Below are positions 41,104 to 58,849 of a stretch of 64,000 nt of DNA, one piece after another. Position 1 is the first letter of the stretch. Every line of letters starts with the position of its first letter. The stretch is from an uncultured Actinomycetes bacterium. Lineage in GTDB: Bacteria > Actinomycetota > Actinomycetes > Streptosporangiales > Streptosporangiaceae. The notes beneath the pieces were generated by a model. It made no database searches, was not told where the DNA came from, and saw only the letters and a list, made by a program, of their open reading frames with translations. Location of the stretch: assembly GCA_963837335.1 (NCBI GenBank), contig CAWINS010000086.1:24114-88113 (forward strand). Reading direction: 5' to 3'. The position numbers and the translations under genes were made by a program.

Positions 41104-41464
41104 GGGCAGACGGCCCGGCGAATCTCCAGGGCCACACGCTGGCTGCCGCGCTGCGGATCCTGGCGCTGGAAGATGACCTGGCCGCCGCGCGCGCCCTGAC
41201 CGCCCACCTGCACGACCGGCTCGCCGGCCAGGACCGGCAGGACGAGAGCTAATCTCGGCGGGCCCGCGGTCTCCCGGTAGGCGGTGGGGGAGCCGCGTGC
41301 TCGCCAGCCAGGGCCCGCAGGCGGGCCAGCTCGGCCGCCACCGAGATGCTGAACAGGCCACGGTCCAGGTCCGCCCACCCCGGGCTCACCACGGCCAGTC
41401 CCGGTCTCGGGCGAGAAGCCGCAGGGCCAGTCCGGCCAGCACGGCGGCCCTTAGCGCAGCATCG

Positions 41465-41497
41465 CGGCATGGGCCGCCGGCCCCAGGCGGCCCATGC
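41465..41497. terminator. Perfect 13-bp-stem hairpin at the left edge of copy A
   Basis: ggcatgggccgcc (41465-41477), a 7-nt loop, then ggcggcccatgcc (41485-41497). There is no U-tract. The homologous hairpin in copy B follows the hsp20 stop. Confidence 0.4.
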
Positions 41498-41791
41498 CGT
41501 CCGGATCCCGGGACACGATCCGGGCAACTCAATAGGCCCAGGTGGCCCGCCATCTGCAAATGACCCTGTCAAGTGCGTATTGCACGATGCGAGTCCAGGG
41601 ACGGGCTCTGCACCTCTTTCTCTGCCAGCAGGAGTCAGCCGTGGATTTTGCCCGCAAGTCATAGCCACACCTGGGGCAAAAGGAACTTGGGGGGCGGCAC
41701 GACCACGAGCGTGAGGCGGCGGGACGGCACTCGGCCAGGTAGGAGACACACTGCCGAGGGCAAACCGGTGCCCGCTGAGCGGGTGCAATTC

Positions 41792-41816
41792 GTTTCTGAT
41801 CGCATCCGGCGGGTAG
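41792..41816 (+). promoter_or_regulatory. Candidate sigma-B/sigma-F-type promoter GTTT-N15-GGGTAG
   Basis: GTTT at 41792-41795, a 15-nt spacer and GGGTAG at 41811-41816, ~34 nt upstream of ATG 41850. It is conserved in copy B. Confidence 0.5.
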
Positions 41817-41849
41817 CGGCGGCGCCACGGCAAGCCACGGAGGAAAATC

Positions 41850-42264
41850 ATGTCAGAGCAGACAACTCCTGAGCACGGCGCTCCAGAGCAGGGCACCCCG
41901 AACGAGCCCACCACCGGCAATGAGCAGGGATTCGGCGTCGGCGAGGACAATCATGGGTGGGCTCCGGATGTGCAGTCGTCCGGAAAAACGACCGAGCGCC
42001 GGCCATAAGGCCTGGGAAGCCAACGAAACGCAAGGTGCCGCCCATGGCGACGGCGACTCCTCACCTGACCCCGGCGACCCGCGGTTGCCGTCGGAGAACG
42101 TCGGGCAGAGTACGGCGGCGCGTGGCGAGGACATCGGAGACCGTGACGGCAAAGAGGCTGGACGCCAGGACACTGGTACTCAAGGGGCGAGCGAGAGGCC
42201 GACAGGAACGTCCACGGCTAGGGACGTCACAAGCGTCAATCCGCAGGATCCCATTGAACCCTGA
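41850..42264 (+). CDS. Small acidic hydrophilic protein(s), read in two frames (copy A)
   Basis: ATG 41850 follows the RBS GGAGGA and gives MSEQTTPEHGAPEQGTPNEPTTGNEQGFGVGEDNHGWAPDVQSSGKT, stopping at 42006-42008. The conserved ...KAWEANETQGAAHGDGDSSPDP...ARDVTSVNPQDPIEP (to 42264) is in the +1 frame. Confidence 0.35.
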
Positions 42265-42568
42265 ATTGCCGAACCAGGGCTAAGCCAGGCTAAATCTCGG
42301 TCCGCCACCGGCCAGGAGACAGGTGGTACCGCCGGCAACGACGCGGTCCCGGCCGACAGCCGCACCCACAGGGCAACACCGCCAGTCGCTGGAAGGCACC
42401 ACTGCGGCCTCCACCTTGTCTCGGAGACGATGCATCCCGACGACGCGGGGTAGGGCGGGGCAAACCGGCAAACGGCGGGCGGGATACCACTGCGCTGCGG
42501 CCTGACGTCAGGCAGGCGAGTGCGGCGCAGAATCCATGTGCCTTTCCCCAGGCTGGCCGTAGAAGAAG

Positions 42569-42905
42569 TCACCCAGGGAGATCGTCGCGCAGCGACCACA
42601 AGATCAGAACAGGGCACTGCAGGCGGACGCCAGCGGCCCGGTCGGTCTCCTCATGGCGCCGGTCGATGGTGAGACCGGCTCGGTAGTCTCCAGCGTGGCC
42701 CAGACCGTGGCGGATTCCTGGTTGCCTTCCGCCACTCGTCGTAATTTTCCTGGTCGATCTGCGCGGGTCGCCGTGATACCAGCTGTCCGGATCGCTGTTG
42801 ATGACACGTTCCGGGCTGCCGGCTGAGCGAAGAAGAACCAGTGCCGCGGTGCCGAGTGGTAAGGGCGCAGGGGTGGCCGGCTGCCGGGTAACTGGGGCGG
42901 CATCC
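42569..42905 (-). pseudogene. C-terminal fragment of an alpha/beta hydrolase (haloacetate-dehalogenase/epoxide-hydrolase-like), multiple frameshifts
   Basis: The pieces HWFFFAQPA, PERVINSDPDSWY, YDEWRKA and GDYRAGLTIDRRHEETDRAAGVRLQCPVLILWSLRDDL are spread over three minus-strand frames. This fragment is absent from copy B. Confidence 0.5.
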
Positions 42906-42985
42906 CGGACAAGACGCCCGCGTGAGGGAGCAGCGCGATGCATCAGGCGGCTCGCACTCCGCCGTAACTGTTGCTGAGGCTGTGC

Positions 42986-43010
42986 GGTTGGCCGCGGGGG
43001 TGGCGGGTAG
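42986..43010 (+). promoter_or_regulatory. Partial sigma-B/F-like promoter (GGTT-N15-GGGTAG) abutting the HAD start
   Basis: GGGTAG at 43005-43010 ends 9 nt before ATG 43020, so the transcript could be leaderless. The -35 element is GGTTg rather than GTTT. Confidence 0.3.
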
Positions 43011-43019
43011 CGGCTGAAC

Positions 43020-43685
43020 ATGACTGACTCCACCATTGCCGTCCTCGACATTGACGGGACGCTCATCGATTCCAACTACCAGCATGCGCTCGCCTGGTAC
43101 CGGGCATTGCGCTTGGTGGGCGAGACCTATCCGGTGTGGCGGCTGCACCGGCTGATCGGCATGGGCGGGGACCAGGTGCTCACGGCTGTTGGAGGTGAGG
43201 ACCTGGAGCGCCGGGTGGGCGATCAGGCCCGGGAGGAGCAGGGCAAGGAGGTCGACGCGCTGCTCGAGGAGATGGCGCCGTTGCCCGGTGCCCGCGACCT
43301 GCTCGTAGCCATCAAGGAACGTGGTCACCGGCTCGTGCTGGCCAGCTCCGGTCAGCAGCGCCACGTGGACGTGTTCCTGGACAAGCTGGACGCCCGCGGC
43401 ATCGCCGACGACTGGACTAGCAGCGCCGACGTCGAGGCGTCCAAGCCGGCACCGGACCTGCTGCAGGTGGCGCTGAAGAAGCTGGGCGCGCCGCCTGACG
43501 TATCGAGCGTGATGGTCGGCGACTCGGTGTGGGACGTCGAGGCGGCGAAAAAAGCCGGGATGCCGGCGATCGTCGTCCGCTCCGGCGGCTTTGGGGACGA
43601 CGAGCTCCAGAAGGCCGGCGCCATCGCCATCTACGACACCCCCGGCGACCTCGCGAAGGCACTGGACGACACCCCTCTCGCCTGA
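43020..43685 (+). CDS. HAD-superfamily hydrolase, subfamily IA (phosphatase/beta-PGM-like)
   Basis: 221 aa with LDIDGTLIDS, LASSG and GDSVWDVEAAKKAGMP. Confidence 0.85.
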   Translation: MTDSTIAVLDIDGTLIDSNYQHALAWYRALRLVGETYPVWRLHRLIGMGGDQVLTAVGGEDLERRVGDQAREEQGKEVDALLEEMAPLPGARDLLVAIKERGHRLVLASSGQQRHVDVFLDKLDARGIADDWTSSADVEASKPAPDLLQVALKKLGAPPDVSSVMVGDSVWDVEAAKKAGMPAIVVRSGGFGDDELQKAGAIAIYDTPGDLAKALDDTPLA

Positions 43686-44174
43686 CGCCACTGCCACCGC
43701 CGGCCCTCGGTCGGATCCGCCACCGGATCCGACCGTGTGTCTGTAGTGTCCACGGTCATACCCACGCGAGCACCGCAACCGATGACCGCCGACGAGACAG
43801 ACGCGGCTACGAGCACGAGGAGCACTCTGGCCGATGACGGCCCTGGAAACGAGGACCGCGCGGAGCTGACTGGCCAAGGTGGTGGTGGCCGGCGCATGGC
43901 GAGGGTCAGCGCACTGCTGGCGCTGGCGGGCGACGGCTTCCGCCGCCGGATCCCGGTCGGGCCGAATGCGGCCGGGGCGGTGCGGTAGAGGTTCAGCGCC
44001 CCCGGTGTGCTGACGCACTCATTCCCGCTGCATCCCCGGCTGCCCGACGTGACCGCGGCCGCCTGGTCGCCCTGCTGCGTTCGTCACTCAGCACGAGAAC
44101 TGGCTCGGCGATCGACACGTGCGAGACGTTCAACCGGCGCGAGGAAGGCACGGTCAGTCACCGTGCTGCCAGGT

Positions 44175-44690
44175 TCATCTGAGCTGGGCTGGCTGGTCCC
44201 GCCCGCGCTCAGCCTGCAGGTCTGGTGGTTGCGGATCGTCGGCCGCCGCCGGAGTGCTGCCCCAGTCGACGGTGTCGTCCATGATGCCGATCATCTTCCC
44301 GGCCGGAACGGCGAGTACCACGATGGCGATGCACGCCCACAGCAGCCACCAGGCGTGCGCGATGATCGATAGTCCGCCCGCGAGGGAGGCGACCATGACC
44401 ACGCTGACAAGTGCCCAGGATGCGGGCTTGCCATGGGTATGGCCCCCCTCGGGGACGTGCCGGTCTTCCAGCTGTTCCCAGGGCCGCTGACCCTGCCCGG
44501 CAGAGATCTCCCCGTCCCGGCTGCCGCGCCGTAGCTTTGCGCGCACGGCGGGGGGGAGGCCGTCGGCCAGGAAGACCATGCCGAGCAACACGGCAAGACC
44601 CAGGATCGCGACGACCGCCGTCAGTATCATCCCGGTCGTCGTACCCAGGAGCTCGACTTGCGATGTCCTGAGTTCTGGTGGTGGATACAC
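44175..44690 (-). CDS. Small membrane protein with an HGxxPAxW motif (HGxxPAAW-family-like)
   Basis: 171 aa, 3 TM helices, motif HTHGKPASW. The paralogue is at 55180-55707. Confidence 0.7.
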   Translation of the reverse strand: MYPPPELRTSQVELLGTTTGMILTAVVAILGLAVLLGMVFLADGLPPAVRAKLRRGSRDGEISAGQGQRPWEQLEDRHVPEGGHTHGKPASWALVSVVMVASLAGGLSIIAHAWWLLWACIAIVVLAVPAGKMIGIMDDTVDWGSTPAAADDPQPPDLQAERGRDQPAQLR

Positions 44691-44859
44691 CTTGCTGTCT
44701 CCCGTTCAGCTCTCTCTTGTTGGCGGCTCGCCCGCCCGCAGCCAGCGGCCTATGATCTGTGGGGTTCCGCGCTGCCAGATCTCGGCGGGCGGCCACCAGG
44801 CTGTGGCTGAAAGAGGCGGTGCGGGGCCGCCCCGGGCGGGGGCGGCCCCGTCTGGCGGG

Positions 44860-45759
44860 CTAGCTGAGGACGTCCTTGATCTTTCCGGCGATGCCGGTTT
44901 CGGTGCCCATGGCAGGGCCGCTGGGCTCGCCCATCGCGCCGTCATAGGTGGCATACAGCAACGGGTCGGGGGCCGGGACCGAGGCCACATCACCCAGGGG
45001 CTGGGGGTCGGCCAGGTACCCGAACTCGTGCCGGCCATCAGGCTGGGGGCCGGCCGCCCAGCCGCCGTTCTGGCCCGAGGTGCCGTCAGACAGGTGCCAG
45101 GTGGCGCTGGCGTGCTCGGCATATTCCTCGTCGAACAAGGCATTCGGTGCCACGGTCGTCTCCAGCCCGTCCGCCTGCAGTTCCTCGATTGCCTTCAGCC
45201 ACAGGTTCTGGTGCAGGGTGTCACGGGCCAGGTTGAACCGCAGCATGTTGCGGACGCCGTTGTCATCGGTCATCTGATACAGCCGCGCAGTCTGCAGCCG
45301 CCCTTGCGCCTCGGCGGCGGCGTTGGCTCGGAAGTCGGCCAGCAGGTTCCCGCTGGCCACGATGTACCGGCCGTTCCACGGGTAGCCGTTGCTGTCGGCG
45401 GGCAGGGGGCCACCGCCGGCGACGATGGCCTGCTGCGGGTCCATCCCGCCCAGCACCGCGCCGACCACCGGGTCGGCCAGGGCAGCTTTCGTGGTGGCGG
45501 TAGCCGGGGCGCCCTCCAGAAGACGGGCCACCATGGTGGCGATCATCTCCACGTGGCCCATCTCTTCGGTGGCGACATCCATGATCAGGTCTTTGTACTT
45601 GCCGGGCATCCGGCAGTTCCAGCCCTGAAACAGGTACTGCATGGTCACGGTCATCTCGCCGTAGGCGCCACCGATCAGCTCCTGCAGCTTGTGCGCGTAC
45701 ACCGGGTCGGGCTGGTCTGGCTTGGACTCGAACTGCAGACGGGAGGTGTGCCTGAACAT
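44860..45759 (-). CDS. Manganese catalase (copy A, intact)
   Basis: MFRHTSRLQFESKPDQPDPVYAHKLQELIGGAYGEMTVTMQYLFQGW..EEMGHVEMIATM. I prefer the start at 45759; the track ORF starts at 45810. Confidence 0.9.
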   Translation of the reverse strand: MFRHTSRLQFESKPDQPDPVYAHKLQELIGGAYGEMTVTMQYLFQGWNCRMPGKYKDLIMDVATEEMGHVEMIATMVARLLEGAPATATTKAALADPVVGAVLGGMDPQQAIVAGGGPLPADSNGYPWNGRYIVASGNLLADFRANAAAEAQGRLQTARLYQMTDDNGVRNMLRFNLARDTLHQNLWLKAIEELQADGLETTVAPNALFDEEYAEHASATWHLSDGTSGQNGGWAAGPQPDGRHEFGYLADPQPLGDVASVPAPDPLLYATYDGAMGEPSGPAMGTETGIAGKIKDVLS

Positions 45760-45952
45760 CAGCAGCGGCCTCACTTCCGTGATGGTGCCCGCAGTCATCG
45801 TCCGGCTCATCCGGGACCTTGCGGGCTGTGCTCTGAGGCCGCGTTTTGACCTGGGCCACGCTGCTGCCCGCAGATGAGCCCGGCATGCACGCCTGGCCTA
45901 AGATTCCAGTCGGCCGGGGTCAGAGCGCCAGTCAGGGGGAAGGAGGACCCAA

Positions 45953-46679
45953 GTGAGTTCCACAGAAAGAGATGAGATCAAGGAGGTCATCGGCCAGACG
46001 TTCGTGGCCGTTGGCACTCTCGCCCGTGCGCTGCACGTCGAAGACGCCCGCCTCGAGCCAACGCTCCATGCCATCACCGCCAACGCGGCAGCCGCTCACC
46101 CCGCCGCCAAGGACGCAGGGCTCATTCTCCTGATCGGCGGAAAGCTCATTCCCCAGGCCACGACGGGGCCGGGCGCCCCAGCTCCTGGACATGAAGCAGC
46201 AGGACACGGGACGGGGTCCCTGCATCGAGGCCGCGCGTGAACAAACGCTGCTCTGCATCAACGACCTACAGCGTGATCCTCGCTGGCCTGACTTCTCGGC
46301 AGAGGCCCGAGCGTGCGGTGTGAGAAGCATGCTCTGCGCGCCCCTGTGGATCAACGAGCGGACACTGGGGACACTCAGCCTGTACGCGCCGCAGTCAGCA
46401 GCGTTCAGCGACCACGACAAACGGATCATTGAGCTGTTCGCCACCCTGGCCGCGCTGGCCCTCGCTGAAGCCCAGCGAACAGAACATCTCAGGACCGCCC
46501 TGCTCAACCGCGACGTGATCGGCCAAGCCAAAGGCATCATCATGGCGCGCTACAACATCGACGCCGACGCCGCCTTTGCCACCCTCAAACGCCTCTCGCA
46601 AGACCAGAACAAGAAGCTGCACGAGATCGCCCGCCAAGTCACAGAAGACCGGGAAGTCCCCGACACAACCGAGCAATAA
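45953..46679 (+). pseudogene. GAF-ANTAR regulator (copy A), one frameshift
   Basis: ORFs 45953-46240 and 46191-46679 together equal the intact copy at 56983-57708. There is one extra nt at ~46169-46173 (ggggccgggcg versus ggggcaggcg in copy B). Confidence 0.8.
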
Positions 46680-46692
46680 CCTTCGCCGGCAG

Positions 46693-47677
46693 CTAGGGCG
46701 CTTCGGCGGTCCCGCCTGGTGTCAGGGCGCGGAGGGGGCCGGCGAGCTCGCGGGCGAAGAAGTCCATGAACCCGTCCGGGTCGGGTCCGGCGTTCATGGC
46801 GACCAGGTGATCGAAGCCGGCGTCGGCGAACTGCCGGGCCACCTCCAGGTGCCGGCCGGCGTCGGGACCGCAGGCGAACTGGGACTTGACCTGGTCAATG
46901 GTGATGCTCGCGGTCGCGGCCTCGAAGTTGACCGGGTTAGGCAACTCGGCCATGACCTTCCAGCCGGTCAGCGCGAACCGGCTCTTCTCCAGGACTGCCT
47001 GCGCGGCCTTGTCCTCGTCTGCCGCCCAGGCCAGGGGCATCTCGGCGTAGGCAGGCCCGCTGCCGCCCAGGTTCTGCCAGCTGGCTGACCAGGTCGCCGT
47101 CCGGCTCGGTGGCGAACAGCCCGTCGCCCAGTTCCGCGGCGATCCGCGCCGATACCGGCCCGCTGGCCGCCACGGCGATGACCGGGAGCTTGCCGGGCAG
47201 ATCGAACACGCGGGCGTCCTCGAGCTGCAGGTACTTGCCCTGGTAAGACTGGTAGCCGCCGCGCCACAGCAGCCGGATGATCTCCAGCGCCTCACGGAAC
47301 CGCTCATGGCGCACCCGCTGGGCGGGGAAGCCGAGGCCGACGACGTGCTCGTTGAGCCGCTCGCCCGCCCCGGCGCCCAGCGTGAACCGGCCATCGCAGA
47401 CCAGGGCCATGGTGGCCGCCGCCTGGGCGATGATCGCGGGGTGGTAGCGCACCGACGGGCAGGTCACTCCGGTCGCCAGGCCGATCCGCGTGGTCTTCGC
47501 GGCGATCACGGGCAGGACGCTCCAGGTGAACGCGCTGTGGCCCTGCGCCTCCAGCCACGGGTGGTAGTGGTCGCTCATCTCCACGAAGTCAAACCCGGCC
47601 TCCTCGGCCAGCACGGCCTGCCGGATGAGCTCAGCGGGACCGAACGCTTCGGTGGCGAGCTTGTAGCCGATCCTCAT
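46693..47677 (-). pseudogene. LLM-class F420-dependent oxidoreductase, G6PDH family (copy A), one frameshift
   Basis: MRIGYKLATEAFGP..SDHYHPW in ORF 46937-47878 continues in ORF 46693-47394. There is an extra T at ~47086 (ctggcTgacc versus ctggcgacc in copy B). Confidence 0.8.
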
Positions 47678-47895
47678 GTCCTGCTCCTCTCCCGGGAAAC
47701 CGCCGGTGCCGCTACCCGCCTGCCGATGCCCGACACCAGCCCATGGCACCGCGCGAGCGGCACTGACCAGGACGGCCCAGCGGATCTGGCCGGGACGGTT
47801 GGCCCCGGTCCTGCCGGGAAGCGGCGGTACCCCGGAACGCGAAGGCCAATCCCGGAACGGGGACAACCACCGCGACAAGCGGCAAAGGAGGAATC

Positions 47896-48471
47896 ATGCC
47901 GAGTGTGTTCGACGTACTGGGTCAGGATCATCAAGAGGTCAAGCGGATGCTGTCCGAGCTTGAGAAGGGCCCGACCGCCGCGACCGGCGCCAGCGACAAT
48001 CACCTGATGCTCCGCAAGAAGATGGTGGAGCAGCTGATCATCGAGGAATCCAAGCACGAGGCGCTGGAGGAGATGTACTTCTGGCCCGTCGTGCGGGACC
48101 GGCTCCCCGGCGGGAACCACCTCGCGGACACCGCCACCGGCCAGGAGCAGGAAGGCAAGCAAGTCCTGGATCAGCTGGACAAGCTGAACGCGGACCAGCC
48201 CGAATTCGAGCACCTGGTAGTCACGTTCATCGGCGCGGGCCGGGAGCACATCGCTTATGAGGAGGTCGAGGTCTGGCCGCTGCTCCGCGGAACGCTCACC
48301 GAGGAGGAGGCCGTCAGCATCGGCGACAAGATCGCTGCGGGCAAGAAGACCGCCCCGACCCGCCCGCACCCGAACACGCCGCCGTCACCGAGCGTGCTCA
48401 AGGGGGCCGGTCCCGCGGTAGCCGCGGCCGACCGGGTCCGCGACACGGCCACCGGCCGCGGCCGTGACTGA
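47896..48471 (+). CDS. Hemerythrin (HHE cation-binding) domain protein
   Basis: 191 aa with DVLGQDHQEVKRML, ESKHEALEEMYFWP and REHIAYEEVEVWP. The RBS AAAGGAGGA is upstream. It is deleted from copy B. Confidence 0.85.
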   Translation: MPSVFDVLGQDHQEVKRMLSELEKGPTAATGASDNHLMLRKKMVEQLIIEESKHEALEEMYFWPVVRDRLPGGNHLADTATGQEQEGKQVLDQLDKLNADQPEFEHLVVTFIGAGREHIAYEEVEVWPLLRGTLTEEEAVSIGDKIAAGKKTAPTRPHPNTPPSPSVLKGAGPAVAAADRVRDTATGRGRD

Positions 48472-48522
48472 CGGGGAACCAGCGAGAGGTCAGGCTGGCC
48501 GGAGCGGGCCTGCAGCGGACAG

Positions 48523-48915
48523 ATGGACGGAGCACTGATGAGAGCAGTTACCTGGCAAGGCAAGCGTGACGTCCGGATCGAGCAAGTTCCCGATCCGGTG
48601 ATCAAGGAACCTAACGACGCGATCGTGCGGATCACCAGCACCAACATCTGCGGTTCGGACCTGCACCTGTACGAGGTACTGGCGGCGTTCATGGAGCCCG
48701 GGGACATCCTGGGTCATGAGCCCATGGGTGGTCCAGGAGGTCGGCCCGGAAGCCGCCGGGCACATCTCGCCCGGTGACCGGGTGGGTGATCCCGTTCAAC
48801 ATTTCCTGCGGGCACTGCTGGATGTGCGAAACGGCAGCTGTTCGCCCAGTGCAAGACCACGCAGAACACGGAGCAGGGCAAGGGCGCCTCCCTGTTCGGC
48901 TACACCAAGCTGTTC
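48523..48915 (+). pseudogene. Zn-dependent alcohol/formaldehyde dehydrogenase, 5' third only, at least 2 frameshifts, truncated by an IS remnant
   Basis: [34 protein letters not shown], then [33 protein letters not shown] and FAQCKTTQNTEQGKGASLFGYTKLF fall in different frames. ADH similarity ends at ~48915. Confidence 0.7.
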
Positions 48916-49477: not shown

Positions 49478-49502
49478 GTTTGGGCGCAGTAGCGAGGGGT
49501 AG
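49478..49502 (+). promoter_or_regulatory. Candidate sigma-B/sigma-F-type promoter GTTT-N15-GGGTAG upstream of the OBAP gene
   Basis: GTTT at 49478-49481, a 15-nt spacer and GGGTAG at 49497-49502, 55 nt upstream of ATG 49557. Confidence 0.5.
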
Positions 49503-49556
49503 CGCGGGGTGTTCTTGATCGAGCTGAAGGACTCACCGCCCACCGAAGGAGTGACC

Positions 49557-50640: not shown

Positions 50641-51026
50641 GTGACGAGCTTTCAGCCACACCGCGCCATCGTTACCGCCTCGGACTCCGGCATCGGCCGT
50701 GCGACGGCCGTCGCCCTCGCCGCGTCGGGGATGGACATCGGCGTCACCTGGCACTCCGATGAGGTAGGGGCGCAGACACCGCCGCTGAGGTCCGTGCCAC
50801 CGGGGTCAACGCCGAGGTGGCCCGGCTGGACACGGCCGACCTGCCTAGCTGCGGGGACGTCATCGACGAACTGGTCGGCCGCCTGGACGGCGTGGACGTG
50901 TTCGTGAGCAACGCTGGCACCGGGACGAGCACGCTGGCTCTGGACATGACGTTTGAGGAATGGCGCCACGTGATGACACGCCGATACGCCGGGCTGGCCG
51001 ACTGCCGCCGGCGGCTCTTGCTGTAG
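50641..51026 (+). pseudogene. SDR-family oxidoreductase fragment (N-terminal ~110 aa, frameshifted, truncated)
   Basis: AIVTASDSGIGRATAVALAASGMDIGVTWHSDE in one frame and ARLDTADLPSCGDVIDELVGRLDGVDVFVSNAG..FEEWRHV in another. The catalytic YxxxK region is missing. Confidence 0.55.
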
Positions 51027-51109
51027 TGCTTCAGCGAGCGGCTGGCTGAGCCGTGCGGGGCGGCGGGGCGGCAACTGCGGCTTCGGGCGGTCCAGGCCAG
51101 CCTGCCGTG

Positions 51110-51279
51110 ATGAACAGGTGCTGCTGGCCGGTCCGGGTGGAGCACGCCGACTGGGGTCGTGGCAGGGTGCTGACCAGCGAGGACGAGCGGATGACCGTGC
51201 TGTCCGACGAGGTCGGCTACCAGGAACTGGCCACCGGGGGGTGCCCGGGGAACAGTTGCTCAGCCTGGTCGGCCGCTGA
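51110..51279 (+). pseudogene. DUF3553-like small protein, frameshift in a G6 run
   Basis: VRVEHADWGRGRVLTSEDERMTVLSDEVGYQEL, then after the G-run at 51236-51241 the tail VPGEQLLSLVGR* is in another frame. Confidence 0.4.
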
Positions 51280-51320
51280 GCCGGCGCTCCGCCCGGCCGG
51301 TCCGGGCCGGGAGCCTGGCC

Positions 51321-53274
51321 TGTGTAGTGTTTCGAGGGGGGGTATGGGGGGGAAGGAGGTGACGGTGGTGCGGTGCTGCGGTAGGATGAGGTGGTAACAA
51401 TAGTGAGGAGGTTGGGGAGATGGGCGAGGGGAGAGCGTTGGTGTTGCAGTCAGATCAAGGCAGCGAGAGCAGCTCGGTGAGGTTCGCTCACCTCAGCAGC
51501 TCGGAGAGGGTCAAGTGTGGTTGCGCAGCGTAGTAGGTATGATAGTGGGGAAGAGCTTGAGCGTCGGAAGGAATACGCGGTGCAGCTCGGCTCCAGCCCG
51601 ACGTAGCTGCAGGAAGGCAGATGAGAGGACAGCTGGTTCAAGGTGAGACGCAAGGTGTGAGAGCGCTGCAGGCTCTCGCAGCGAATAGAGGCACTTAGAG
51701 GGCTTCTACGATGCGGAGGCGCAAGGCGAGGTGCAGGACAGGGGAGTGGCTGAGAGTGTTGGAATGCAGGATAACGCATCGACTGAAGCGAGGAGAGCAA
51801 GGGCAGAGAGCGAGGGTGAAACGGAGAGGGGGAGCGATAGGGCGCTAGGCCAGTGGTGGGATAGGAACTCAGCTTGTACGTAGATATGTCACGTTGGCGG
51901 GCTGGTTTGCGCTTTGCAGGACAGGCAGAGGTACAGCGGAGAGCTGGAGGCACTTGCTAAGAAAAAGAAGAGATAGGAAGATGAGAGAAAGAAAAGAGTA
52001 AAAGAGATGAAGGAAGAAAAGGTAATGGGGGGTGTAAGAAGATAAGTAAGGGAAGAGAGAGAAGGTGATAGTAGAGAAGAGAAGAGAGAAAAAATAGAAG
52101 AGAGATAGAAGATAAATAAGTTCGAAGAAAGAGTGAAAGAGTTAAGAGAAGGAAATGAGATAAAGTAGATAGAAGAAGGAATGGAAGTAGATATGATAAA
52201 AGGAAAGAGAAAAGAAGTGATAAAAGAAAAGTAAGAGAAGAGTTAAATAAAAAGAAGATAGGAAATGGATAGAAGAGAAAGAAAAGAAGAGAGCTAATAA
52301 GGGAGGGGAGAGGACTAGGTAAAGAGGGAGGAGAGAGGGAGGGAATGAGGTGTATAGGTAAGAGGTGAGAGAGAGGAGAGGTAAAAGGAGAGTGAGAGCA
52401 GATGGGATAGCTAAGATTGCAACTGGAGGGTTACTCTTGCAATTGCAGGAAAAGGTAGATATAGGTTAAGTTAAGGAAGTCAGCGGTAAGAGAGCAAATC
52501 TGCTATAACTGGTAGATATAAAGGTGGGAGTAAAGGTGGGTGCAATGCGCTGAGAGCGGGTAGAGCAGTTTTCTGTTCGTAGATCGCAGAGTCTGGGATG
52601 CAGCTAGGAGAGCTAGGTGGACACTGAGATACTGAAAAGGAGATGATACAGGTAAGAAAAAGAGGAGTTAGATAAGGAGAGTAAGAGTAATAGGTGAGAT
52701 AGAGAAAGGATAATATAGAGAGCGAGGAGAGATGATCTACTATTAGTAAAAAAAGAAAGGAAAAGGAGATAGGTGAGGAATATATAAGAGGAATGGTAAA
52801 GCTAACAGAGGAGGAGGAGAGGGTATAAGAGATAAAGGAGTAAAGAAGGGAGGAAAAGGAGAAAAGGAAGAGGAGGGAGGGGGTTGATAGAGGGAGAGAG
52901 ATAGGTAATAGAAGGAGAGGAGAGAAGGGTAAAAGAGAAAGAGAGAGGAAAGGACAGGGAGAGGAAAAGGAAAGATGAGGAGGTATAGATAGGTAGGGAA
53001 TAGGGATGCTAGGAGAGAGCTAGGCGATGATAAGATTGCGAGATGTGTTATAGAGAGGCAAGAGAGACAAAAAGAAACTGGTAAAGATAAGGGAAAGGAA
53101 AGATGAGATATAAAGAGAAAATGAAAGAAAAAATAAAAATAAATGAATAAAGAAGAAGATATAGAAAAGAGTAAGAAGAAAGAAAAAATATAAGTAGAGA
53201 TATGTAAGATAAATATAGGAAATGATATATAGATGAAGTGAGAGAGAAATGAAAAAGAGAAAAAGAAAAGGAGG
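51321..53274 (+). other. Cytosine-depleted polypurine tract (~1.95 kb), a progressively degraded partial copy of 37.5-39.2 kb
   Basis: By eye there are 3 C in 51961-52380 and ~13 C in 52641-53274. Collinear matches to the + strand of the FAD/Fe-S gene region include 51577-51602 vs 37655-37680 (25/26) and 51662-51679 = 37947-37964 (18/18). No credible ORF on either strand. Confidence 0.9.
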
Positions 53275-53282
53275 CTCCGATC

Positions 53283-53699
53283 ATGCTCATGCGCACCGAC
53301 TCATTCCGCGACCTGGACCGGCTCACTCAGCAGGTGTTCGGCACGCCGCTCGTACTGCCGCGATGCCGATGGACGCCTACCGGCAGGGCGACAGTTTCTA
53401 CATCCACCTCGACCTGCCTGGCGTCAACCTGAGTTCATCGACCTCACTGTCGAGCAGAACGTGCTGACCATCCGCGCCGAACGCGCCCGGTGAAAGCTGA
53501 CGGCGCCGAGATGATCGTCGCCGAGCGGCCCTACGGCACCTTCACTCGGCAGGTCTTCCTCGGCGAGACCTCGACGCCGACAAGATCGCCGCCGACTACG
53601 CGGCCGCGTGCTGACCTGACCATCCCAGTCCACGAGGTGGCCAAGCCCCGCAGCATCCAGGTCAGCAGCAGCGACCAGAAACAGGCCGTCACCGCGTAA
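53283..53699 (+). pseudogene. Hsp20/alpha-crystallin small heat-shock protein with at least 4 frameshifts
   Basis: The RBS AAGGAGG is 7 nt upstream of ATG 53283. MLMRTDSFRDLDRLTQQVFGT / ARTAAMPMDAYRQGDSFYIHLDLPGVN / IDLTVEQNVLTIRAERA / ADGAEMIVAERPYGTFTRQVFLGE / LDADKIAADYAA / LTIPVHEVAKPRSIQV are scattered over all three + frames. Confidence 0.8.
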
Positions 53700-53719
53700 T
53701 GCTCTGACCGCAGCATCCC

Positions 53720-53753
53720 GGCATGGGCCGTCGTCCGCTAGGCGGCCCATGCC
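53720..53753. terminator. Hairpin following the hsp20 stop (homologue of 41465-41497)
   Basis: ggcatgggccg (53720-53730) pairs with cggcccatgcc (53743-53753), 21 nt after TAA 53697-53699. There is no U-tract. Confidence 0.4.
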
Positions 53754-54039
53754 GCCGAATCCGGGGCACGATCCGGGCAACGCAATAGGCACAGGTGGGC
53801 CGCCATCTGCAAATGACCCACTCAAGTGCGTGTTGCGATACGAGTACAGGGACGGGGCTCCTCTTTCTCTGCCAGCAGGAGTCAGCTGTGGATATTTCCC
53901 GCAAGTCATAGCCACACACCTGGGGCAAAAGGACTTGGGGGGCGGCCGGACCACGAGCGTGAGGCGGCGGGACGGCCCTCGGCCAGGTAGGAGACACACT
54001 GCCGAGGGCAAGCCGGTGCGCGCTGAGCAGGTGCAATTC

Positions 54040-54064
54040 GTTTCTGAGCGCATCCGGCGGGTAG
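54040..54064 (+). promoter_or_regulatory. Candidate sigma-B/sigma-F-type promoter GTTT-N15-GGGTAG (copy B)
   Basis: GTTT at 54040-54043, a 15-nt spacer and GGGTAG at 54059-54064, upstream of ATG 54097. Confidence 0.5.
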
Positions 54065-54096
54065 CGGCGGCACCACGGCAAGCTACGGAGGAAATC

Positions 54097-54521
54097 ATGT
54101 CAGAGCAGACAACTCCTGAGCACGGTGCCCCAGAGCAGGGCACCCCGAACGAGCCCACCACCGGCAACGAGCAGGGATTCGGCGTTGGCGAGGACAATCA
54201 TGGGTGGGCTCCGGATGTGCAGTCGTCCGGGAAAACGAGCGGAGCAGGCATAAGGCCTGGGAAGCCAACGACACGCAAGATGCCGCCCATGGCGACGGCG
54301 ATTCCTCACCTGACCCCGACGACCCGCGGTTGCCGCCGGAGAACGTCGGGCAGAGTACGGCGGCGAGTGGCGAGGACATCGGAGACCGTGACGGCAAAGA
54401 GGCTGGACGCCAGGACACTGGTACTCAAGGGGCGAGCGAGAGGCCGACAGGAACGTCCACGGCTAGGGATGTCACAAGCGTGAATCCGCAGGATCCCATT
54501 GAACCTGAATCGCCGAACTAG
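54097..54521 (+). CDS. Small acidic hydrophilic protein(s), read in two frames (copy B)
   Basis: The MSEQTTPEHGAPEQGTPNEPTTGNEQGFGVGEDNHGWAPDVQSSGKT frame starts at 54097. The conserved KAWEANDTQDAAHGDGDSSPDP...VNPQDPIEPESPN frame (track ORF 54204-54521) is -1 relative to it. Confidence 0.35.
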
Positions 54522-54810
54522 GGCTAAGCCGGGCTAAATCTCGGTCCACCACCGGCGAGGAGACAGGTGGTACCGTCGGCAACGACGCGGTCCCGGCCGA
54601 CAGCCGCACCCACAGTGCAACACCGCCAGCGGGCGGAAGGCGCCACTGCGGCCTGCGCGCTGTCTCGGAGACGATGCACCCCGACGATGCGGGTTAGGGC
54701 GGAGCAACCCGCAAACGGCGGACGGGATACCACTGCGCTGCGGCCTGACGTCATGCAGGTGAGTGCGGCGCAGAATCCATGTGCCTTGCGGGCAGGTGCT
54801 CGCTGATGGC

Positions 54811-54961
54811 AGGCCCGGGAGCAGCAGGGCAAGGAGGTCGTCGCGCTGCTCGGGGAGATGGCGCCGTTGCCCGGTGCCCGAGATCTGTGGCGCTGAAGAA
54901 GCTGGGCGCGCCGCGCGACGCATCGAGCGTGATGATCGGGGACTCGGTCTGGGACGTCGAG
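54811..54961 (+). pseudogene. Deletion remnant of the HAD hydrolase gene (copy B)
   Basis: Two patches match copy A at 43213-43300 and 43468-43540. The rest of the 666-nt gene is missing. Confidence 0.6.
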
Positions 54962-55179
54962 AGCGTCCACGGTCATACCCCACGCGAGCACCGCAACCGA
55001 TGACCGCCGACGAGACAGACGCGGCTACGAGCACGAGGAGCACTCTGGCCGATGGCGGCCCTGGAAACGAGGACCGCGCGGAGTTGACTAACCAGGGACG
55101 AGAACTGGCTCGGCGACCGACACGTGCGAGACGTTCAACCCGCGCGAGGAAGGCACGGTCAGTCACCGTGCTTCCGGAC

Positions 55180-55707
55180 TCATCTGATCTGCGGTGACTG
55201 GTCCCGCCCATGATCAGCCTCTAGGTCTGGAGGTTGCGGGTCGGAGGTCGCTGCAGGCGTACTGCCCCAGTTGACGGTGTCGTCCATGATGCCGATCATC
55301 TTCCCGGCCGGGATGGCGAGTACCGCAATGGCGATGCACGCCCATAGCAGCCACCAGGCGTGCGCGATGATCGATATCCCGCCTGCGAGGGCGGCGACCA
55401 TGACCACGGTGACGAGTATCCAGGATGCGGGCTTGCCGTGGGTATGGCCCCCCTCGGGGACGTGCCGGTCTTCCAGCTGTTCCCAGGGCCGCTGACCCTG
55501 CCCGGCAGAGATCTCCCCGCTCCGGCCGCCGCGGGCAGCGCCGCGCCGTAGCTTTGCGCGCACGGCTGGGGGGAGGCCGTCGGCCAGGAAGACCATGCCG
55601 AGCAGCACGGCGAGACCCAGGATCGCGACGACAGCGGTCACTATCATCCCGGTCGTCGTACCGAGAAGTTCTGCCTGCGATGTTCTGAGTTCTGGTGGTG
55701 GTGACAC
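55180..55707 (-). CDS. Small membrane protein with an HGxxPAxW motif (copy B)
   Basis: 175 aa, a near-identical paralogue of 44175-44690 (HTHGKPASW). Confidence 0.7.
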   Translation of the reverse strand: MSPPPELRTSQAELLGTTTGMIVTAVVAILGLAVLLGMVFLADGLPPAVRAKLRRGAARGGRSGEISAGQGQRPWEQLEDRHVPEGGHTHGKPASWILVTVVMVAALAGGISIIAHAWWLLWACIAIAVLAIPAGKMIGIMDDTVNWGSTPAATSDPQPPDLEADHGRDQSPQIR

Positions 55708-55890
55708 TTGATATATCTCCCGTTCAGCTTGGTGCGCTTATGCGCGGCAAGCCCGCCCGCAGACAAACCGTCGATGAGTTGCCGGGCTCCGCGCTGCTGA
55801 TCTAAAGCCCGGCGCCCGGCTGAGAGACACAGGCCGTAAGCGGCGGTGACGGGGCCGCCCGCCTGGCGGGGTGGCCCCCGTCCGGCCGGG

Positions 55891-56789
55891 CTAGCTGAGA
55901 ACGTCCTTGATCTTTCCGGCGATGCCGGTTTCGGTGCCCATGGCTGGGCCGCCAGGCTCGCCCATGGCGCCGTCATAGGTGGCATACAGCAACGGGTCGG
56001 GCGCCGGGACCGAGGCCACATCACCCAGGGGCTGGGGGTCGGCCAGGTACCCGAACTCGTGCTGGCCATCAGGCTGGGGCCGGCCGCCCAGCCGCCGTTC
56101 TGGCCCGAGGTGCCGTCAGACAGGTGCCAGGTGGCGCTGGCGTGCTCGGCATATTCCTCGTCGAACAAGGCATTCGGTGCCACGGTCGTCTCCAGCCCGT
56201 CGGCTTGCAGTTCCTCGATTGCCTTCAGCCACAGGTTCTGGTGCAGGGTGTCACGGGCCAGGTTGAACCGCAGCATGTTGCGGACGCCGTTGTCATCGGT
56301 CATCTGATACAGCCGCGCGGTCTGCAGCCGCCCTTGCGCCTCGGCGGCGGCGTTGGCTCGGAAGTCGGCCAGCAGGTTCCCGCTGGCCACGATGTACCGG
56401 CCGTTCCACGGGTAGCCGTTGCTGTCGGCGGGCAGGGGTCCACCCCCGGCGACGATGGCCTGCTGCGGGTCCATCCCGCCCAGCACCGCGCCGACCACCG
56501 GGTCGGCCAGGGCGGCTTTCGTGGTGGCGGTAGCCGGGGCGCCTTCCAGAAGACGGGCCACCATGGTGGCGATCATCTCCACATGGCCCATCTCTTCGGT
56601 GGCGACATCCATGATCAGGTCTTTGTACTTGCCAGGCATCCGGCAGTTCCAGCCCTGAAACAGGTACTGCATGGTCACGGTCATCTCGCCGTAGGCGCCA
56701 CCGATCAGCTCTTGCAGCTTGTGCGCGTACACCGGGTCGGGCTGGTCTGGCTTGGACTCGAACTGCAGACGAGAGGTGTGCCTGAACAT
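55891..56789 (-). pseudogene. Manganese catalase (copy B), C-terminal frameshift
   Basis: Identical to copy A up to ...GGWAAGP. Then a G4 run (56076-79) replaces the G5 run of copy A (45045-49), shifting the last ~60 codons. The shifted frame runs on to 55644. Confidence 0.75.
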
Positions 56790-56982
56790 CAGCGGCGGCC
56801 TCACTTCCGTGATGGTGCCCGCAGTCATCGTCCGGCTCATCCGGGGTCTTGCGGGCTGTGCTCTGAGGCCGCGTTTTGACCTGGGCAACACCGCTGCCCA
56901 CAGACGAGCCCGGCATGCGCGCCTGGCCTAAGATTCCAGTCGGCCTTGGTCTGAGCGCCAGTCAGGGGGAAGGAGGACCCAG

Positions 56983-57708
56983 GTGAGCTCCACAGAAAGA
57001 GATGAGATCAAGGAGGTCATCGGCCAGACGTTCGTGGCCGTTGGCGCTCTCGCCCGGGCGCTGCACGTCGAAGACGCCCGCCTGGAGCCAACGCTCCATG
57101 CCATCACCGCCCACGCCGCCGCCGCTCACCCCGCCGCCAAGGACGCAGGGCTCATTCTGCTGATCGGCGGAAAGTTTATTCCCCAGGCCACGACGGGGCA
57201 GGCGCCCCAGCTCCTGGACCTGAAACAGCAGGAAACGGGACGGGGTCCCTGCATCGAGGCCGCGCGTGAGCAAACGCTGCTCTGCATCAACGACCTCCAG
57301 CGTGATCCTCGCTGGCCTGACTTCTCGGCAGAGGCCCGAGCGTGCGGCGTGAGCAGCATGCTCTGCGCGCCCCTGTGGATCAACGAGCGGACCCTGGGGA
57401 CACTCAGCCTGTACGCGGCACAGTCAGCAGCGTTCAGCGACCACGACAAACGGATTATCGAGCTGTTCGCCACCCTGGCCGCGCTGGCCCTCGCTGAAGC
57501 CCAGCGAACAGACCATCTCAGGACCGCCCTGCTCAACCGCGACGTGATCGGCCAGGCCAAAGGCATCATCATGGCGCGCTACAACATCGACGCCGACGCC
57601 GCCTTCAGCACCCTCAAACGCCTCTCGCAAGACCAGAACAAGAAGCTGCACGAGATCGCCCGCCAGGTCACCGAACGCCGGGAACTCCCCGAGACAACTG
57701 AGCAATAA
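56983..57708 (+). CDS. GAF-ANTAR RNA-binding regulator (copy B, intact)
   Basis: 241 aa. The GTG start follows the RBS GAAGGAGGA. GAF (GRGPCIEAAREQ..LCAPLW) is followed by ANTAR (VIGQAKGIIMARYNIDADAAFSTLKRLSQDQNKKLHEIA). Confidence 0.85.
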   Translation: MSSTERDEIKEVIGQTFVAVGALARALHVEDARLEPTLHAITAHAAAAHPAAKDAGLILLIGGKFIPQATTGQAPQLLDLKQQETGRGPCIEAAREQTLLCINDLQRDPRWPDFSAEARACGVSSMLCAPLWINERTLGTLSLYAAQSAAFSDHDKRIIELFATLAALALAEAQRTDHLRTALLNRDVIGQAKGIIMARYNIDADAAFSTLKRLSQDQNKKLHEIARQVTERRELPETTEQ

Positions 57709-57721
57709 CCTTCGCCAGCAG

Positions 57722-58705
57722 CTAGGGCGCTTCGGCCGTTCCCCCAGGTTTAAGGGCGCGGAGCGGACCGGCGAGCTCGCGGGCGAAGAAGTCGATGAAC
57801 CCGTCCGGGTCGGGTCCGGCGTTCATGGCGACCAGGTGATCGAAGCCGGCGCCGGCGAACTGCCGGGCCACCTCCAGGTGCCGGCAGGCGTCCGGGCCGC
57901 AGGCGAACTGGGACTTGACCTGGTCAATGGTGATGCTGGCGGTCGCGGCCTCGAAGTTGACCGGGTTGGGCAGCTCGGCCATGACCTTCCAGCCGGTCAG
58001 CGCGAACCGGCTCTTGTCCAGCACTGCCTGCGCGGCCTGGTCCTCGTCTGCCGCCCAGGCCAGGGGCATCTCGGCGTAGGCAGGCCCGCTGCCGCCCAGG
58101 TTCTGCCAGCTGGCGACCAGGTCGCCGTCCGGCTCGGTGGCGAACAGCCCGTCGCCCAGCTCCGCGGCGATCCGCGCCGATACCGGCCCGCTGGCCGCCA
58201 CGGCGATGACCGGGAGCGTGCCGGGCAGATCGAACACGCGGGCGTCCTCGAGCTGCAGGTGCTTGCCCTGGTAGGACTGGTAGCCCCCTTGCCACAGCAG
58301 CCGGATGATCTCCAGCGCCTCACGGAACCGCTCATGGCGCACCCGCTGGGCGGGGAAGCCGAGGCCGACGACGTGCTCGTTGAGCCGCTCGCCCGCCCCG
58401 GCGCCCAGCGTGAACCGGCCATCGCAGACCAGGGCCATGGTGGCCGCCGCCTGGGCGATGATCGCCGGGTGATACCGCACCGACGGGCAGGTCACCCCGG
58501 TCGCCAGGCCGATCCGCGTGGTCTTCGCGGCGATCACGGGCAGGACGCTCCAGGTGAACGCGCTGTGCCCCTGCGCCTCCAGCCACGGATGGTAATGGTC
58601 GCTCATCTCCACGAAATCAAACCCGGCCTCCTCAGCCAGCACGGCCTGCCGGATGAGCTCGGCAGGACCGAACGCTTCGGTGGCGAGCTTGTAGCCGATC
58701 CTCAT
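57722..58705 (-). CDS. LLM-class F420-dependent oxidoreductase, G6PDH family (copy B, intact)
   Basis: Start is MRIGYKLATEAFGP at 58705; the track ORF extends to 58801. 327 aa with the luciferase-like TIM-barrel motif SDHYHPW. Confidence 0.85.
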   Translation of the reverse strand: MRIGYKLATEAFGPAELIRQAVLAEEAGFDFVEMSDHYHPWLEAQGHSAFTWSVLPVIAAKTTRIGLATGVTCPSVRYHPAIIAQAAATMALVCDGRFTLGAGAGERLNEHVVGLGFPAQRVRHERFREALEIIRLLWQGGYQSYQGKHLQLEDARVFDLPGTLPVIAVAASGPVSARIAAELGDGLFATEPDGDLVASWQNLGGSGPAYAEMPLAWAADEDQAAQAVLDKSRFALTGWKVMAELPNPVNFEAATASITIDQVKSQFACGPDACRHLEVARQFAGAGFDHLVAMNAGPDPDGFIDFFARELAGPLRALKPGGTAEAP

Positions 58706-58849
58706 GTCCTGCTTCCTCTCCCGGGAAACCGCCGGTACCGCTACCCGCCCGCCGATGCCCGACACGGGCCGTGGCACCGCGCGGGCGGCACTGGCCTGCA
58801 CCTGTACGAGGTGCTGGCCGCGTTCATGGAGCCCGGGCGGCCGGGGCGT

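Follow-up and report, generated by a model that had tools for sequence, protein, structure and literature searches.

An actinobacterial sequence from which one base all but disappears on one strand for almost 2 kb, directly upstream of a heat-shock gene, may represent either an unusual biological element or an error, and the stretch at 51321–53274 of the window analysed here (the whole 64 000-nucleotide stretch, to which all coordinates refer) raises that question. The initial annotation had favoured an artefact, i.e. corrupted sequence in a chimeric assembly of the long-read type, and all the evidence gathered here agrees. The tract is very likely a poorly supported, corrupted stretch of a chimeric, probably long-read metagenome contig and not a feature of the organism's DNA. 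The apparent polypurine block or 'hypermutated repeat' is almost certainly a set of ordinary genes with one base erased rather than a new biological element. The features discussed are collected in Table 1.

Table 1. Location of the C-poor tract, its component sequences and neighbouring features in the window.
Feature	Coordinates	Strand	Basis or remark
Intact counterpart ('template') in the 1027-aa FAD/Fe-S oxidoreductase gene (37054–40137, minus strand)	37544..38740	+	Intact ORF
Copy A of large direct duplication	41447..48702	+	Self-blast, Pfam
Onset of C-poor stretch, G/T-rich	51321..51469	+	Composition
Copy of 37544–37733 (antisense of FAD/Fe-S oxidoreductase gene)	51470..51652	+	blastn 74%, E=4e-25
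Copy of 37939–38244, after 205-nt skip	51654..51936	+	blastn 69%, E=3.5e-28
Copy of 38401–~38740, after 156-nt skip, with ~35-nt internal skip	51938..52250	+	blastn and 50-mers
C-erased MerR/HspR-type regulator gene remnant	52251..52665	- (coding strand)	Collinear with L095 2212–2595, L016 9023–9409
C-erased DnaJ-domain gene remnant	52673..53130	- (coding strand)	Collinear with L095 2603–3064, L016 8562–9029
C-erased hsp20 promoter and 5′ UTR, corruption ending sharply at 53275/53276	53131..53275	+	Alignment to L047, L016, L095
hsp20, normal composition, broken by 7–9 single-base deletions	53283..53700	+	Five reading-frame switches
Copy B of the duplication, 92–95% identical to A, continuous with the tract	53701..58837	+	Self-blast

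Composition of the C-poor tract

Base counts gave 153 C among the 1954 nt of the tract (7.8%) vs 35% across the whole window, and when all 64 kb were scanned no other 200-nt window fell below 15% for C or G. Two blocks are almost devoid of C, in agreement with the near-total loss first reported (3 C in 51961–52380, and 14 rather than ~13 in 52641–53274). The return to normal composition just before the hsp20 ATG (53283) was also confirmed, at 53276. The monotonic 5′ to 3′ gradient that had been described is not seen. Instead the profile of C retention is stepwise and piecewise constant, without relation to function, being ~45% in 51470–51950, <5% in 51950–52350, 20–40% in 52350–52650 and <10% in 52650–53275, then 84% beyond 53276. 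The last step, from ~0 to 84%, spans a few bases at 53275/53276, within the hsp20 5′ UTR. For 50972–51469, which includes the onset of the tract, nothing above background was found as a template by C-tolerant local alignment against the whole window or by blastn and tblastx against 207 loci.

The 600 nt upstream of hsp20 contain 49.8% A, 2.8% C, 33.5% G and 13.8% T in the window, compared with means of 14.7% A, 38.4% C, 34.6% G and 12.2% T at 109 homologous loci in relatives, the lowest C content among these being 32.6%. The loss of C thus equals the gain of A, with the G and T fractions unmoved. No similar tract was present in these 109 loci or in 1.6 Mb of related loci, and a 30-mer from the tract was absent from JGI metagenome contigs.

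'Polypurine' proved a loose label. The tract is purine-rich (76% overall, 84–87% in two cores), but even the cores are interrupted by 12–16% T, i.e. a T every 6–8 nt, and the longest unbroken purine run is 42 nt. The suggestion that the block could form H-DNA is therefore weak: it shares a purine-rich strand with H-DNA-forming homopurine/homopyrimidine mirror repeats, and lacks their long unbroken purine run.

Ordinary sequences beneath the tract

Three-letter BLAST (C merged with A, G or T) under lenient scoring was discarded, because the tract aligned to everything and the statistics were therefore invalid. In its place, 50-mers were scanned without gaps and alignments were scored with an asymmetric matrix, shuffled or unrelated sequences serving as controls; tblastx against relatives returned only noise in this high-GC DNA.

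The stretch 51470–52250 is a copy, with three skips, of the antisense of an oxidoreductase gene whose product contains FAD_binding_4, FAD-oxidase_C, Fer4 and CCG domains (Pfam) and is 93% identical in amino acids to P0001. The collinearity of the tract with 37.5–39.2 kb, as initially proposed, holds for these ~780 nt (~40% of the tract) and fails beyond ~52250, where the sequence has another origin. The matches of 18/18 and 25/26 were exact as quoted, and the three internal deletions, estimated at ~200, ~140 and ~20 nt, measured 205, 156 and ~35 nt. An 8-mer (52573–52580 = 39184–39191) that had been counted as a further match is due to chance, the region there being homologous to the hspR-like gene. 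Within the third block, blastn aligned 51938–52076 to 38401–38541 (61%, E=1e-3), and collinear 50-mers carry the homology on to 52225, equivalent to ~38709 (offsets 13535 and 13516, z up to 6.6). Three-letter identity to the template is 80–92% up to ~52250 and at background thereafter.

Aligning these blocks and tabulating substitutions upheld the reported C-specific bias, with C kept at 82 of 193 positions vs 78 of 85 for A, 213 of 236 for G and 73 of 85 for T. The lost C comprised 73 C→A, 20 C→G and 18 C→T changes and 27 deletions; in a normally composed duplicate elsewhere in the window, by comparison, C→A was found at 12 of 1278 positions. About half of the C positions were lost in each of the first two blocks, in the second often by deletion, and A was read at >90% of them in the third.

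The remainder, 52250–53275, carries in antisense one gene for a MerR/HspR-type regulator and one for a DnaJ-domain protein, and then the hsp20 promoter; it is collinear with the region upstream of hsp20 in the soil relatives L095, L016, L011 and L047. The L016 proteins match Pfam MerR_1 (2.7e-20) and DnaJ (9e-16), respectively. No ORF for the regulator is left in the window; among ORFs of at least 60 aa, none starts in the tract on the plus strand and one lies inside it on the minus strand (51450–51953), two others merely entering from the flanks (51053–51397, +; 53048–53326, -). Leftward extension of the L095 alignment to 50.9 kb was tried and rejected: left of ~52250 its three-letter identity does not rise above background, and the oxidoreductase template fits that part far better.

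The same C→A rewriting thus recurs in two unrelated underlying sequences, one of them single-copy in the window, which counts in favour of an artefact. In the hsp20-upstream part, A was kept at 134 of 142 positions, G at 335 of 414, T at 99 of 126 and C at only 49 of 415; changes to A comprised 264 C→A, 68 G→A and 19 T→A. Partial retention (20–40%) at 52350–52650 falls within the regulator remnant, and <10% of C positions are retained in the DnaJ-domain remnant (4/75, 1/35 and 7/65 at codon positions 1, 2 and 3). In both genes C was lost across all three codon positions, and gene boundaries were ignored. Promoter columns at least 90% conserved among 93 unique relatives behaved likewise, with A kept at 21/21, G at 17/17, T at 12/15 and C at 1/15 (11 of these read as A), and C was kept at 20 of 21 conserved columns downstream of 53276. 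As C was lost at all codon positions and in conserved promoter columns, there was no selection filter. Non-C positions remain ~84% identical to a relative, close to the 87% of the hsp20 coding sequence, which leaves no time for ordinary divergence.

These observations bear on whether the tract arose in the living cell, by saturating, strand-coordinated hypermutation of a decaying duplicated segment that targeted C (or minus-strand G) in the host actinobacterium and left a purine-rich block upstream of hsp20. A pattern that is non-random, base-specific and strand-specific would suit such an event, as would the genuinely diverged duplication and gene fragments nearby, some of which could be pseudogenised DNA. 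We nevertheless consider it the least probable of the explanations weighed here. It would have destroyed an hspR-like gene, a DnaJ-domain gene and a conserved hsp20 promoter that are intact in all relatives examined, without time for ordinary divergence; the conversion extends beyond the repeats and ends in a step in mid-UTR; the tract is absent from the 109 homologous loci and JGI contigs; and the ORFs tested (40–59 kb) include neither a reverse transcriptase nor another candidate enzyme. We know of no process that converts >90% of one base on one strand. Most of 52250–53275 is single-copy in the window (at duplication copy A, 41184–41417 matches 52476–52700), so the conversion, which runs through ~1 kb of largely single-copy sequence, is not tied to duplication and the 'hypermutation of repeats' put forward initially is refuted. 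Were the tract real, which is highly improbable, one recent strand-specific event would have replaced nearly all C (or opposite-strand G) over ~2 kb, with A by default. Error-prone repair synthesis, in which one strand is rebuilt on a template with massive guanine damage, could be an example. Such an event would amount to a saturating bacterial counterpart of strand-coordinated clustered mutagenesis, and independent reproduction of the tract would point to an undescribed strand-specific mutational process.

Deletions, truncated genes and a duplication around the tract

Corrupted sequence also agrees with the surroundings, since single-base deletions, truncated genes and skips surround the tract. 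The hsp20 gene is 86–89% identical in nucleotides to its relatives, and every gap in these alignments is on the window side. Single-base deletions reach ~2% in hsp20, 1.3% in 53701–54787 (14 deletions, 3 insertions) and 0.14% in 55923–58796, the extra ones in copy B becoming sparser rightwards. On the other side, the upstream SDR gene is frameshifted and truncated at 50971 and an ADH gene is truncated at 48918.

Copy A of the duplication encodes a HAD hydrolase, a Mn catalase, a GAF-ANTAR protein, a luciferase-like protein and a hemerythrin, without hsp20 and the DnaJ-domain gene. The duplication, 93% identical overall, is patchy, and copy B has many clean skips relative to A (679, 165, 203, 213 and 891 nt); its HAD gene, whole in copy A, is shredded and its Mn catalase gene is frameshifted at 56076. 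Conserved pieces of copy B (54810–55097) considered as tRNAs or other RNAs gave no hits with ARAGORN or Rfam and are fragments of the HAD hydrolase gene. Mismatches between A and B share one codon phase (e.g. 11/11 in 47293–47692), showing that B is a homologue that has genuinely diverged (strain or paralogue) and not a re-read of A, which fits a haplotype chimera. Compared with three relatives, the window has an additional 17.7 kb of patchwork sequence separating SDR-290 from the Mnh operon; in L087, hemerythrin, ADH, SDR and Mnh are contiguous. A DUF1264 search of genome contigs returned relatives only, at ≤84% identity, a plasmid collection yielded no match, and the closest relatives are contigs with Flye-style names from soil metagenomes.

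We infer that a false duplication or a haplotype chimera accounts for the 41–59 kb region and that the tract has no read support. This region takes in the duplication, the truncated genes, hsp20 and the Mn catalase gene with their frameshifts, and the tract itself, and should be kept out of gene calling, promoter analysis and inferences on duplication. A simple screen for similar corruption follows: search for stretches in which a base has almost vanished from one strand and the remaining three still align to homologues.

Probable loss of the C signal and comparison with known systems

On the favoured explanation of corrupted sequence, the plus-strand C signal would have been lost and mostly written as A. 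The sequence beneath is ordinary: it combines part of a second, ~93%-identical version (copy or haplotype) of the FAD/Fe-S oxidoreductase locus with the hspR-like regulator gene, DnaJ-domain gene and promoter that precede hsp20 in relatives. The cause may have been a failure of the instrument, the base-caller or the consensus step that affected one read or very few, e.g. lost discrimination of the C signal. Several points count against this explanation. Nanopore sequencing ordinarily errs by deletions and transitions rather than by C→A transversions (PMC8486125), and in the partial zone C was not lost in bursts (runs test P=0.19). Such non-bursty loss is unusual for k-mer-based nanopore base-calling, and a per-base channel (optical, enzymatic or in silico) fits better. 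Searching the literature for C→A failures in PacBio or nanopore base-calling turned up nothing specific, and we know of no published description of exactly such a C-erasing failure. Two-colour or two-amplitude confusion of C and A in PacBio Sequel data or signal compression in nanopore data could conceivably act in this way, although we claim neither.

Alternatively, the artefact might reside in the molecule and not in the instrument. The plus strand of one fragment could have been resynthesised in vitro on a heavily damaged minus strand, during library repair, nick translation, amplification or by the sequencing polymerase, with A inserted opposite oxidised or lost G (8-oxoG:A, the 'A rule'), lost A (T→A) or deaminated C (G→A). 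Every excess class indeed ends in A, A itself being kept, the substitutions preserve register and are strand-specific and roughly independent from base to base, and the sharp 3′ end could mark a repair patch meeting the original strand. We regard this as improbable, however, given that replacement of 90–100% of C over hundreds of bases needs nearly every template G to be damaged yet bypassed, that the onset is gradual rather than patch-like, and that the single-base deletions and skips of the flanks are left unexplained. As far as we know, reported damage artefacts touch <1% of sites, so this density is far beyond them. Slightly less probable again is an in silico change, in which a corrupted file, an error in polishing or correction software or a deliberate perturbation rewrote a position-dependent fraction of C. 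The clean relabelling with unchanged G and T fractions and preserved register, and a per-base-independent loss ending in a step, would be expected of it, and it would also fit that exact look-ups of five window proteins matched no public record; C→T, C→G, G→A and T→A changes and C deletions are not pure relabelling, and the wider zone of deletion errors and skips resembles an organic quality failure.

Among known systems, 8-oxoG artefacts and insertion by the polymerase 'A rule' at abasic sites share the C>A / G>T class, the strand asymmetry and the insertion of A. C→A accounts for 73 of 111 substituted C in the oxidoreductase part and 264 of 352 in the hsp20-upstream part, with the reciprocal G→T nearly nil (2/236 and 6/414). 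Their frequency is low and scattered through a library; the tract, by contrast, changes 55–100% of C, orders of magnitude more densely, in one contiguous ~2-kb block with steps, an abrupt end and accompanying deletions and skips, and neither the rest of the window nor the 1.6 Mb of related loci contains a second block of this kind. Diversity-generating retroelements likewise place a template and a copy differing at one base type in the same window. Here, however, the mutated base is C and not A (A kept 78/85, C 82/193), the copy is ~780 nt with skips instead of ~100–150 nt, conversion continues into non-repeated sequence, and the copy lies in no intact target ORF, let alone at its 3′ end; no reverse transcriptase domain was found among 28 ORFs in 37–59 kb (Pfam). 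RIP in fungi and APOBEC-type kataegis also produce clustered, C-targeted change, tied to duplication in RIP, but as C→T transitions at low to moderate density and, for RIP, on both strands, whereas the tract carries C→A transversions on one strand, near saturation, into single-copy sequence and in a bacterium.

A further likeness is to long-read assembly errors. An analysis of HiFi data documented for metaFlye and metaMDBG both false duplications and haplotype chimeras, as well as 'phantom' sequence, up to >5 kb long, that no reads support (Trigodet et al., bioRxiv 10.1101/2025.04.22.649783). Shared with such errors are a long, direct, imperfect repeat without counterpart in relatives (here 92–95% identical, with the 17.7 kb extra vs L081 and L087), a contig with parts of two divergent forms of the same locus, kilobase-scale sequence that resembles no natural homologue, and indel-broken genes nearby; the ADH and SDR genes truncated at 48918 and 50971, the shredded HAD gene of copy B and the deletion gradient around the tract also fit. 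The tract differs in that it is still collinear with real sequence, from which it departs by base-specific substitution.

Base composition and sources of the tract

The cytosine-poor + strand tract directly upstream of hsp20 contained 153 C in 1954 nt (7.8%, vs 35% in the whole window), with 3 C in 51961-52380 and 14 in 52641-53274, so that the compositional anomaly reported in the initial annotation is real. No other 200-nt window with C or G below 15% was found elsewhere in the 64 kb, nor was a comparable tract found in 1.6 Mb of related loci or a match to a tract 30-mer in JGI contigs. The label 'polypurine' goes too far for a tract with 76% purines (84-87% in two cores), in which a T falls every 6-8 nt and no pure purine run exceeds 42 nt. 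The 300-600 nt preceding hsp20 in 109 homologous loci averaged A 14.7, C 38.4, G 34.6 and T 12.2% (lowest C 32.6%), vs A 49.8, C 2.8, G 33.5 and T 13.8% in the window, the gain in A equalling the loss of C.

The tract combines two ordinary sequences of separate origin, both stripped of + strand C. Its left part is homologous to the FAD/Fe-S oxidoreductase region in three blocks (Table), as had been proposed, and the 18/18 and 25/26 matches cited in support are exact; a three-letter ungapped 50-mer scan extended the homology to 52225 (~38709). Derivation of the whole tract from this region did not hold, since collinearity fails past ~38.7 kb and the sequence from ~52250 onward aligns to the hsp20-upstream region of relatives; the 8-nt agreement at 52573-52580 is due to chance. 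Relative to the oxidoreductase template, the tract retained 78/85 A, 213/236 G, 73/85 T and 82/193 C (C read as A at 73, G at 20 and T at 18 positions, with 27 C deleted), in agreement with the C-specific substitution bias originally claimed. In the duplicate of normal composition found elsewhere in the window, C->A was 12/1278.

With the border near 52250, the remainder (~52250-53275) is collinear without large gaps to sequence upstream of hsp20 in soil relatives. In L016 and L095 this interval carries a MerR/HspR-type regulator, a DnaJ-domain gene and the divergent promoter, all on the opposite strand to hsp20 (Table). C->A-tolerant local alignment scores were 518-549 for three of these loci (L016, L011 and L047), vs shuffled-query nulls of 222-246 ± 10, and 1306 for the closest relative, the JGI soil contig L095. 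Against L095 the tract kept A at 134/142, G at 335/414 (68 to A) and T at 99/126 (19 to A) positions; 49 C were kept, 264 became A, 58 T and 30 G, and 14 were deleted. As most of this part occurs only once in the window, the conversion is not tied to repeats.

The stress-gene neighbourhood is conserved in soil Actinomycetota (L016 7053-12098, L095 1838-3431 and 109 JGI loci, L088 onward), with hsp20 divergent from the DnaJ-domain gene and the MerR/HspR-type regulator, and with DUF1264 and Mn catalase often adjoining. The hsp20 promoter blocks are strongly conserved across 93 unique sequences (AGTCGA..TTGTCA..TG.TATATA.A..GAGCGTGA).

Table. Coordinates of the tract, its sources, the zones of C retention and the flanking duplication.
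Feature	Window position	Counterpart or location	Observation
Oxidoreductase-derived block	51470-51652	37544-37733	74% identity, E=4e-25
Oxidoreductase-derived block	51654-51936	37939-38244	69% identity, E=3.5e-28
Oxidoreductase-derived block	51938-52076	38401-38541	61% identity, E=1e-3
MerR/HspR-type regulator		L016 and L095, opposite strand to hsp20	Pfam MerR_1, 2.7e-20
DnaJ-domain gene		L016 and L095, opposite strand to hsp20	9e-16
Divergent promoter		L016 and L095, upstream of hsp20	
C-retention zone	51470-51950		C kept ~45%, many C deletions
C-retention zone	51950-52350		C kept <5%
C-retention zone	52350-52650		C kept 20-40%
C-retention zone	52650-53275		C kept <10%
C-retention zone	from 53276		C kept 84%
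C-poor tract	51321-53274	upstream of hsp20	
hsp20	53283-53700		
Direct duplication, copies A and B	41447-48702 (A)	53701-58837 (B)	92-95% identity (self-comparison)

Shape and limits of the C loss

Retention of C along the tract was stepwise, and kept and lost C positions in the partial zone showed no clustering (runs test, P=0.19). Codon positions 1, 2 and 3 were all affected in the MerR/HspR-type and DnaJ-domain genes. Over the 160 nt preceding hsp20, where a column was conserved in 90% or more of the 93 unique relatives, the window retained 21/21 A, 17/17 G and 12/15 T but only 1/15 C, 11 being read as A; 3' of 53276, conserved C was kept at 20/21. On the left, no template for 50972-51469 was found, either within the window or among 207 loci. 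Over these ~500 nt, between the truncated SDR gene and the first oxidoreductase-derived block, G-over-C skew climbs from +0.15 to +0.5, and the onset of C loss may lie as early as the 50971 breakpoint.

Errors and duplication around the tract

Conserved genes around the tract are damaged by truncation or by single-base deletions. The SDR gene to the left (50650-50971) is frameshifted once and cut off at 50971, and hsp20, of normal composition, has lost 7-9 single bases and switches frame five times. Next to the tract deletions outnumber insertions ~5:1, and deletion errors fall rightward from 1.3% in 53701-54787 (14 deletions, 3 insertions) to 0.14% in 55923-58796, with a frameshift at 56076 in the copy B Mn catalase. 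Copy B also shows a mild net C loss vs copy A in 53701-54787 (34 lost, 16 gained; C accounts for 6/14 deletions), with C exchange balanced at 55.1-58.8 kb. No tRNA or Rfam element was found in 40-60 kb; an 88-nt ARAGORN 'tRNA-???' with a two-base anticodon (ct) at 35553-35640 (-) is probably spurious, or else a tRNA-like element that has been damaged.

Copy B shows many clean skips of sub-kilobase to kilobase scale, and those of 679, 165, 203, 213 and 891 nt break up a HAD hydrolase gene that is intact in copy A. In copy A, hsp20 and the DnaJ-domain gene are missing and the two MerR-type genes are present as fragments only. Tract and copy B together are collinear with 37.5-48.7 kb and are followed by the Mnh operon. 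In the relatives L081, L082 and L087 the oxidoreductase precedes SDR290 - hemerythrin - ADH - SDR - Mnh, an interval of ~3 kb, where the window has a 17.7-kb patchwork (41126-58865) in which hemerythrin is intact but the ADH gene breaks off at 48918, 127 aa into its product, and a 43-nt piece of it reappears at 58795-58837. The large, imperfect duplication is probably a haplotype/strain chimera or a false duplication, a real paralogous island being a possible alternative; mismatches between the copies fall mostly in one codon phase (e.g. 11/11 in 47293-47692), which marks them as genuinely diverged homologues, putatively paralogues or two strains, and not error copies of each other. The closest relatives are uncultured Streptosporangiaceae (oxidoreductase 91-93% aa identity) with Flye-style contig names. 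One of these, L087, has an oxidoreductase homologue (10001-13732) called at 1243 aa vs ~1027 aa, suggesting a lost stop codon or frameshift there too.

Origin of the erasure and comparison with known systems

The erasure is base-specific, strand-specific and register-preserving, and changes intensity stepwise. The tract lies where a wider zone of truncated genes, skips and deletion errors is at its worst, within a duplication that relatives lack. It thus looks like corrupted, poorly supported sequence and not like evolved DNA or a real biological feature, bearing out the artefact reading favoured in the initial annotation; a technical origin of some kind is very probable. Non-C identity to L095 (~84%, vs 87% for the adjoining hsp20 coding sequence) implies that any real event would be very recent and would have changed >90% of one base on one strand. 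We know of no process that does so, and an in vivo event is highly improbable, as the erasure ignores genes, codons and conserved regulatory positions and stops within the hsp20 5' UTR.

The likely cause is a failure at the sequencing, base-calling or consensus stage, in a contig that is chimeric. Long-read metagenome assemblers produce false direct duplications and contigs mixing sub-population variants, and read-unsupported sequence >5 kb is documented (10.1101/2025.04.22.649783); the usual nanopore error is a deletion or a transition (PMC8486125). That bases are lost independently of one another agrees better with a per-base channel (optical or enzymatic) or with software than with k-mer base-calling. 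The excess of G->A and T->A fits 'default to A' decoding, and would equally fit a polymerase placing A across from damaged bases of its template. In silico alteration is improbable, and in vitro copying of a damaged strand only marginally less so.

The biological interest of the tract is low, and its use is as a quality flag for 41-59 kb of the contig. Unlike in diversity-generating retroelements (DGR), the base changed is C, not A, and no + strand ORF of 60 aa or longer begins in the tract; a Pfam scan of 28 ORFs in 37-59 kb returned no RT. RIP and kataegis do not match one-strand transversions that approach saturation and continue into single-copy DNA, and a longest purine run of 42 nt sets the tract apart from H-DNA tracts. 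An 8-oxoG-type artefact shares the substitution class but not the density, while the structural features resemble those of a long-read assembly artefact.
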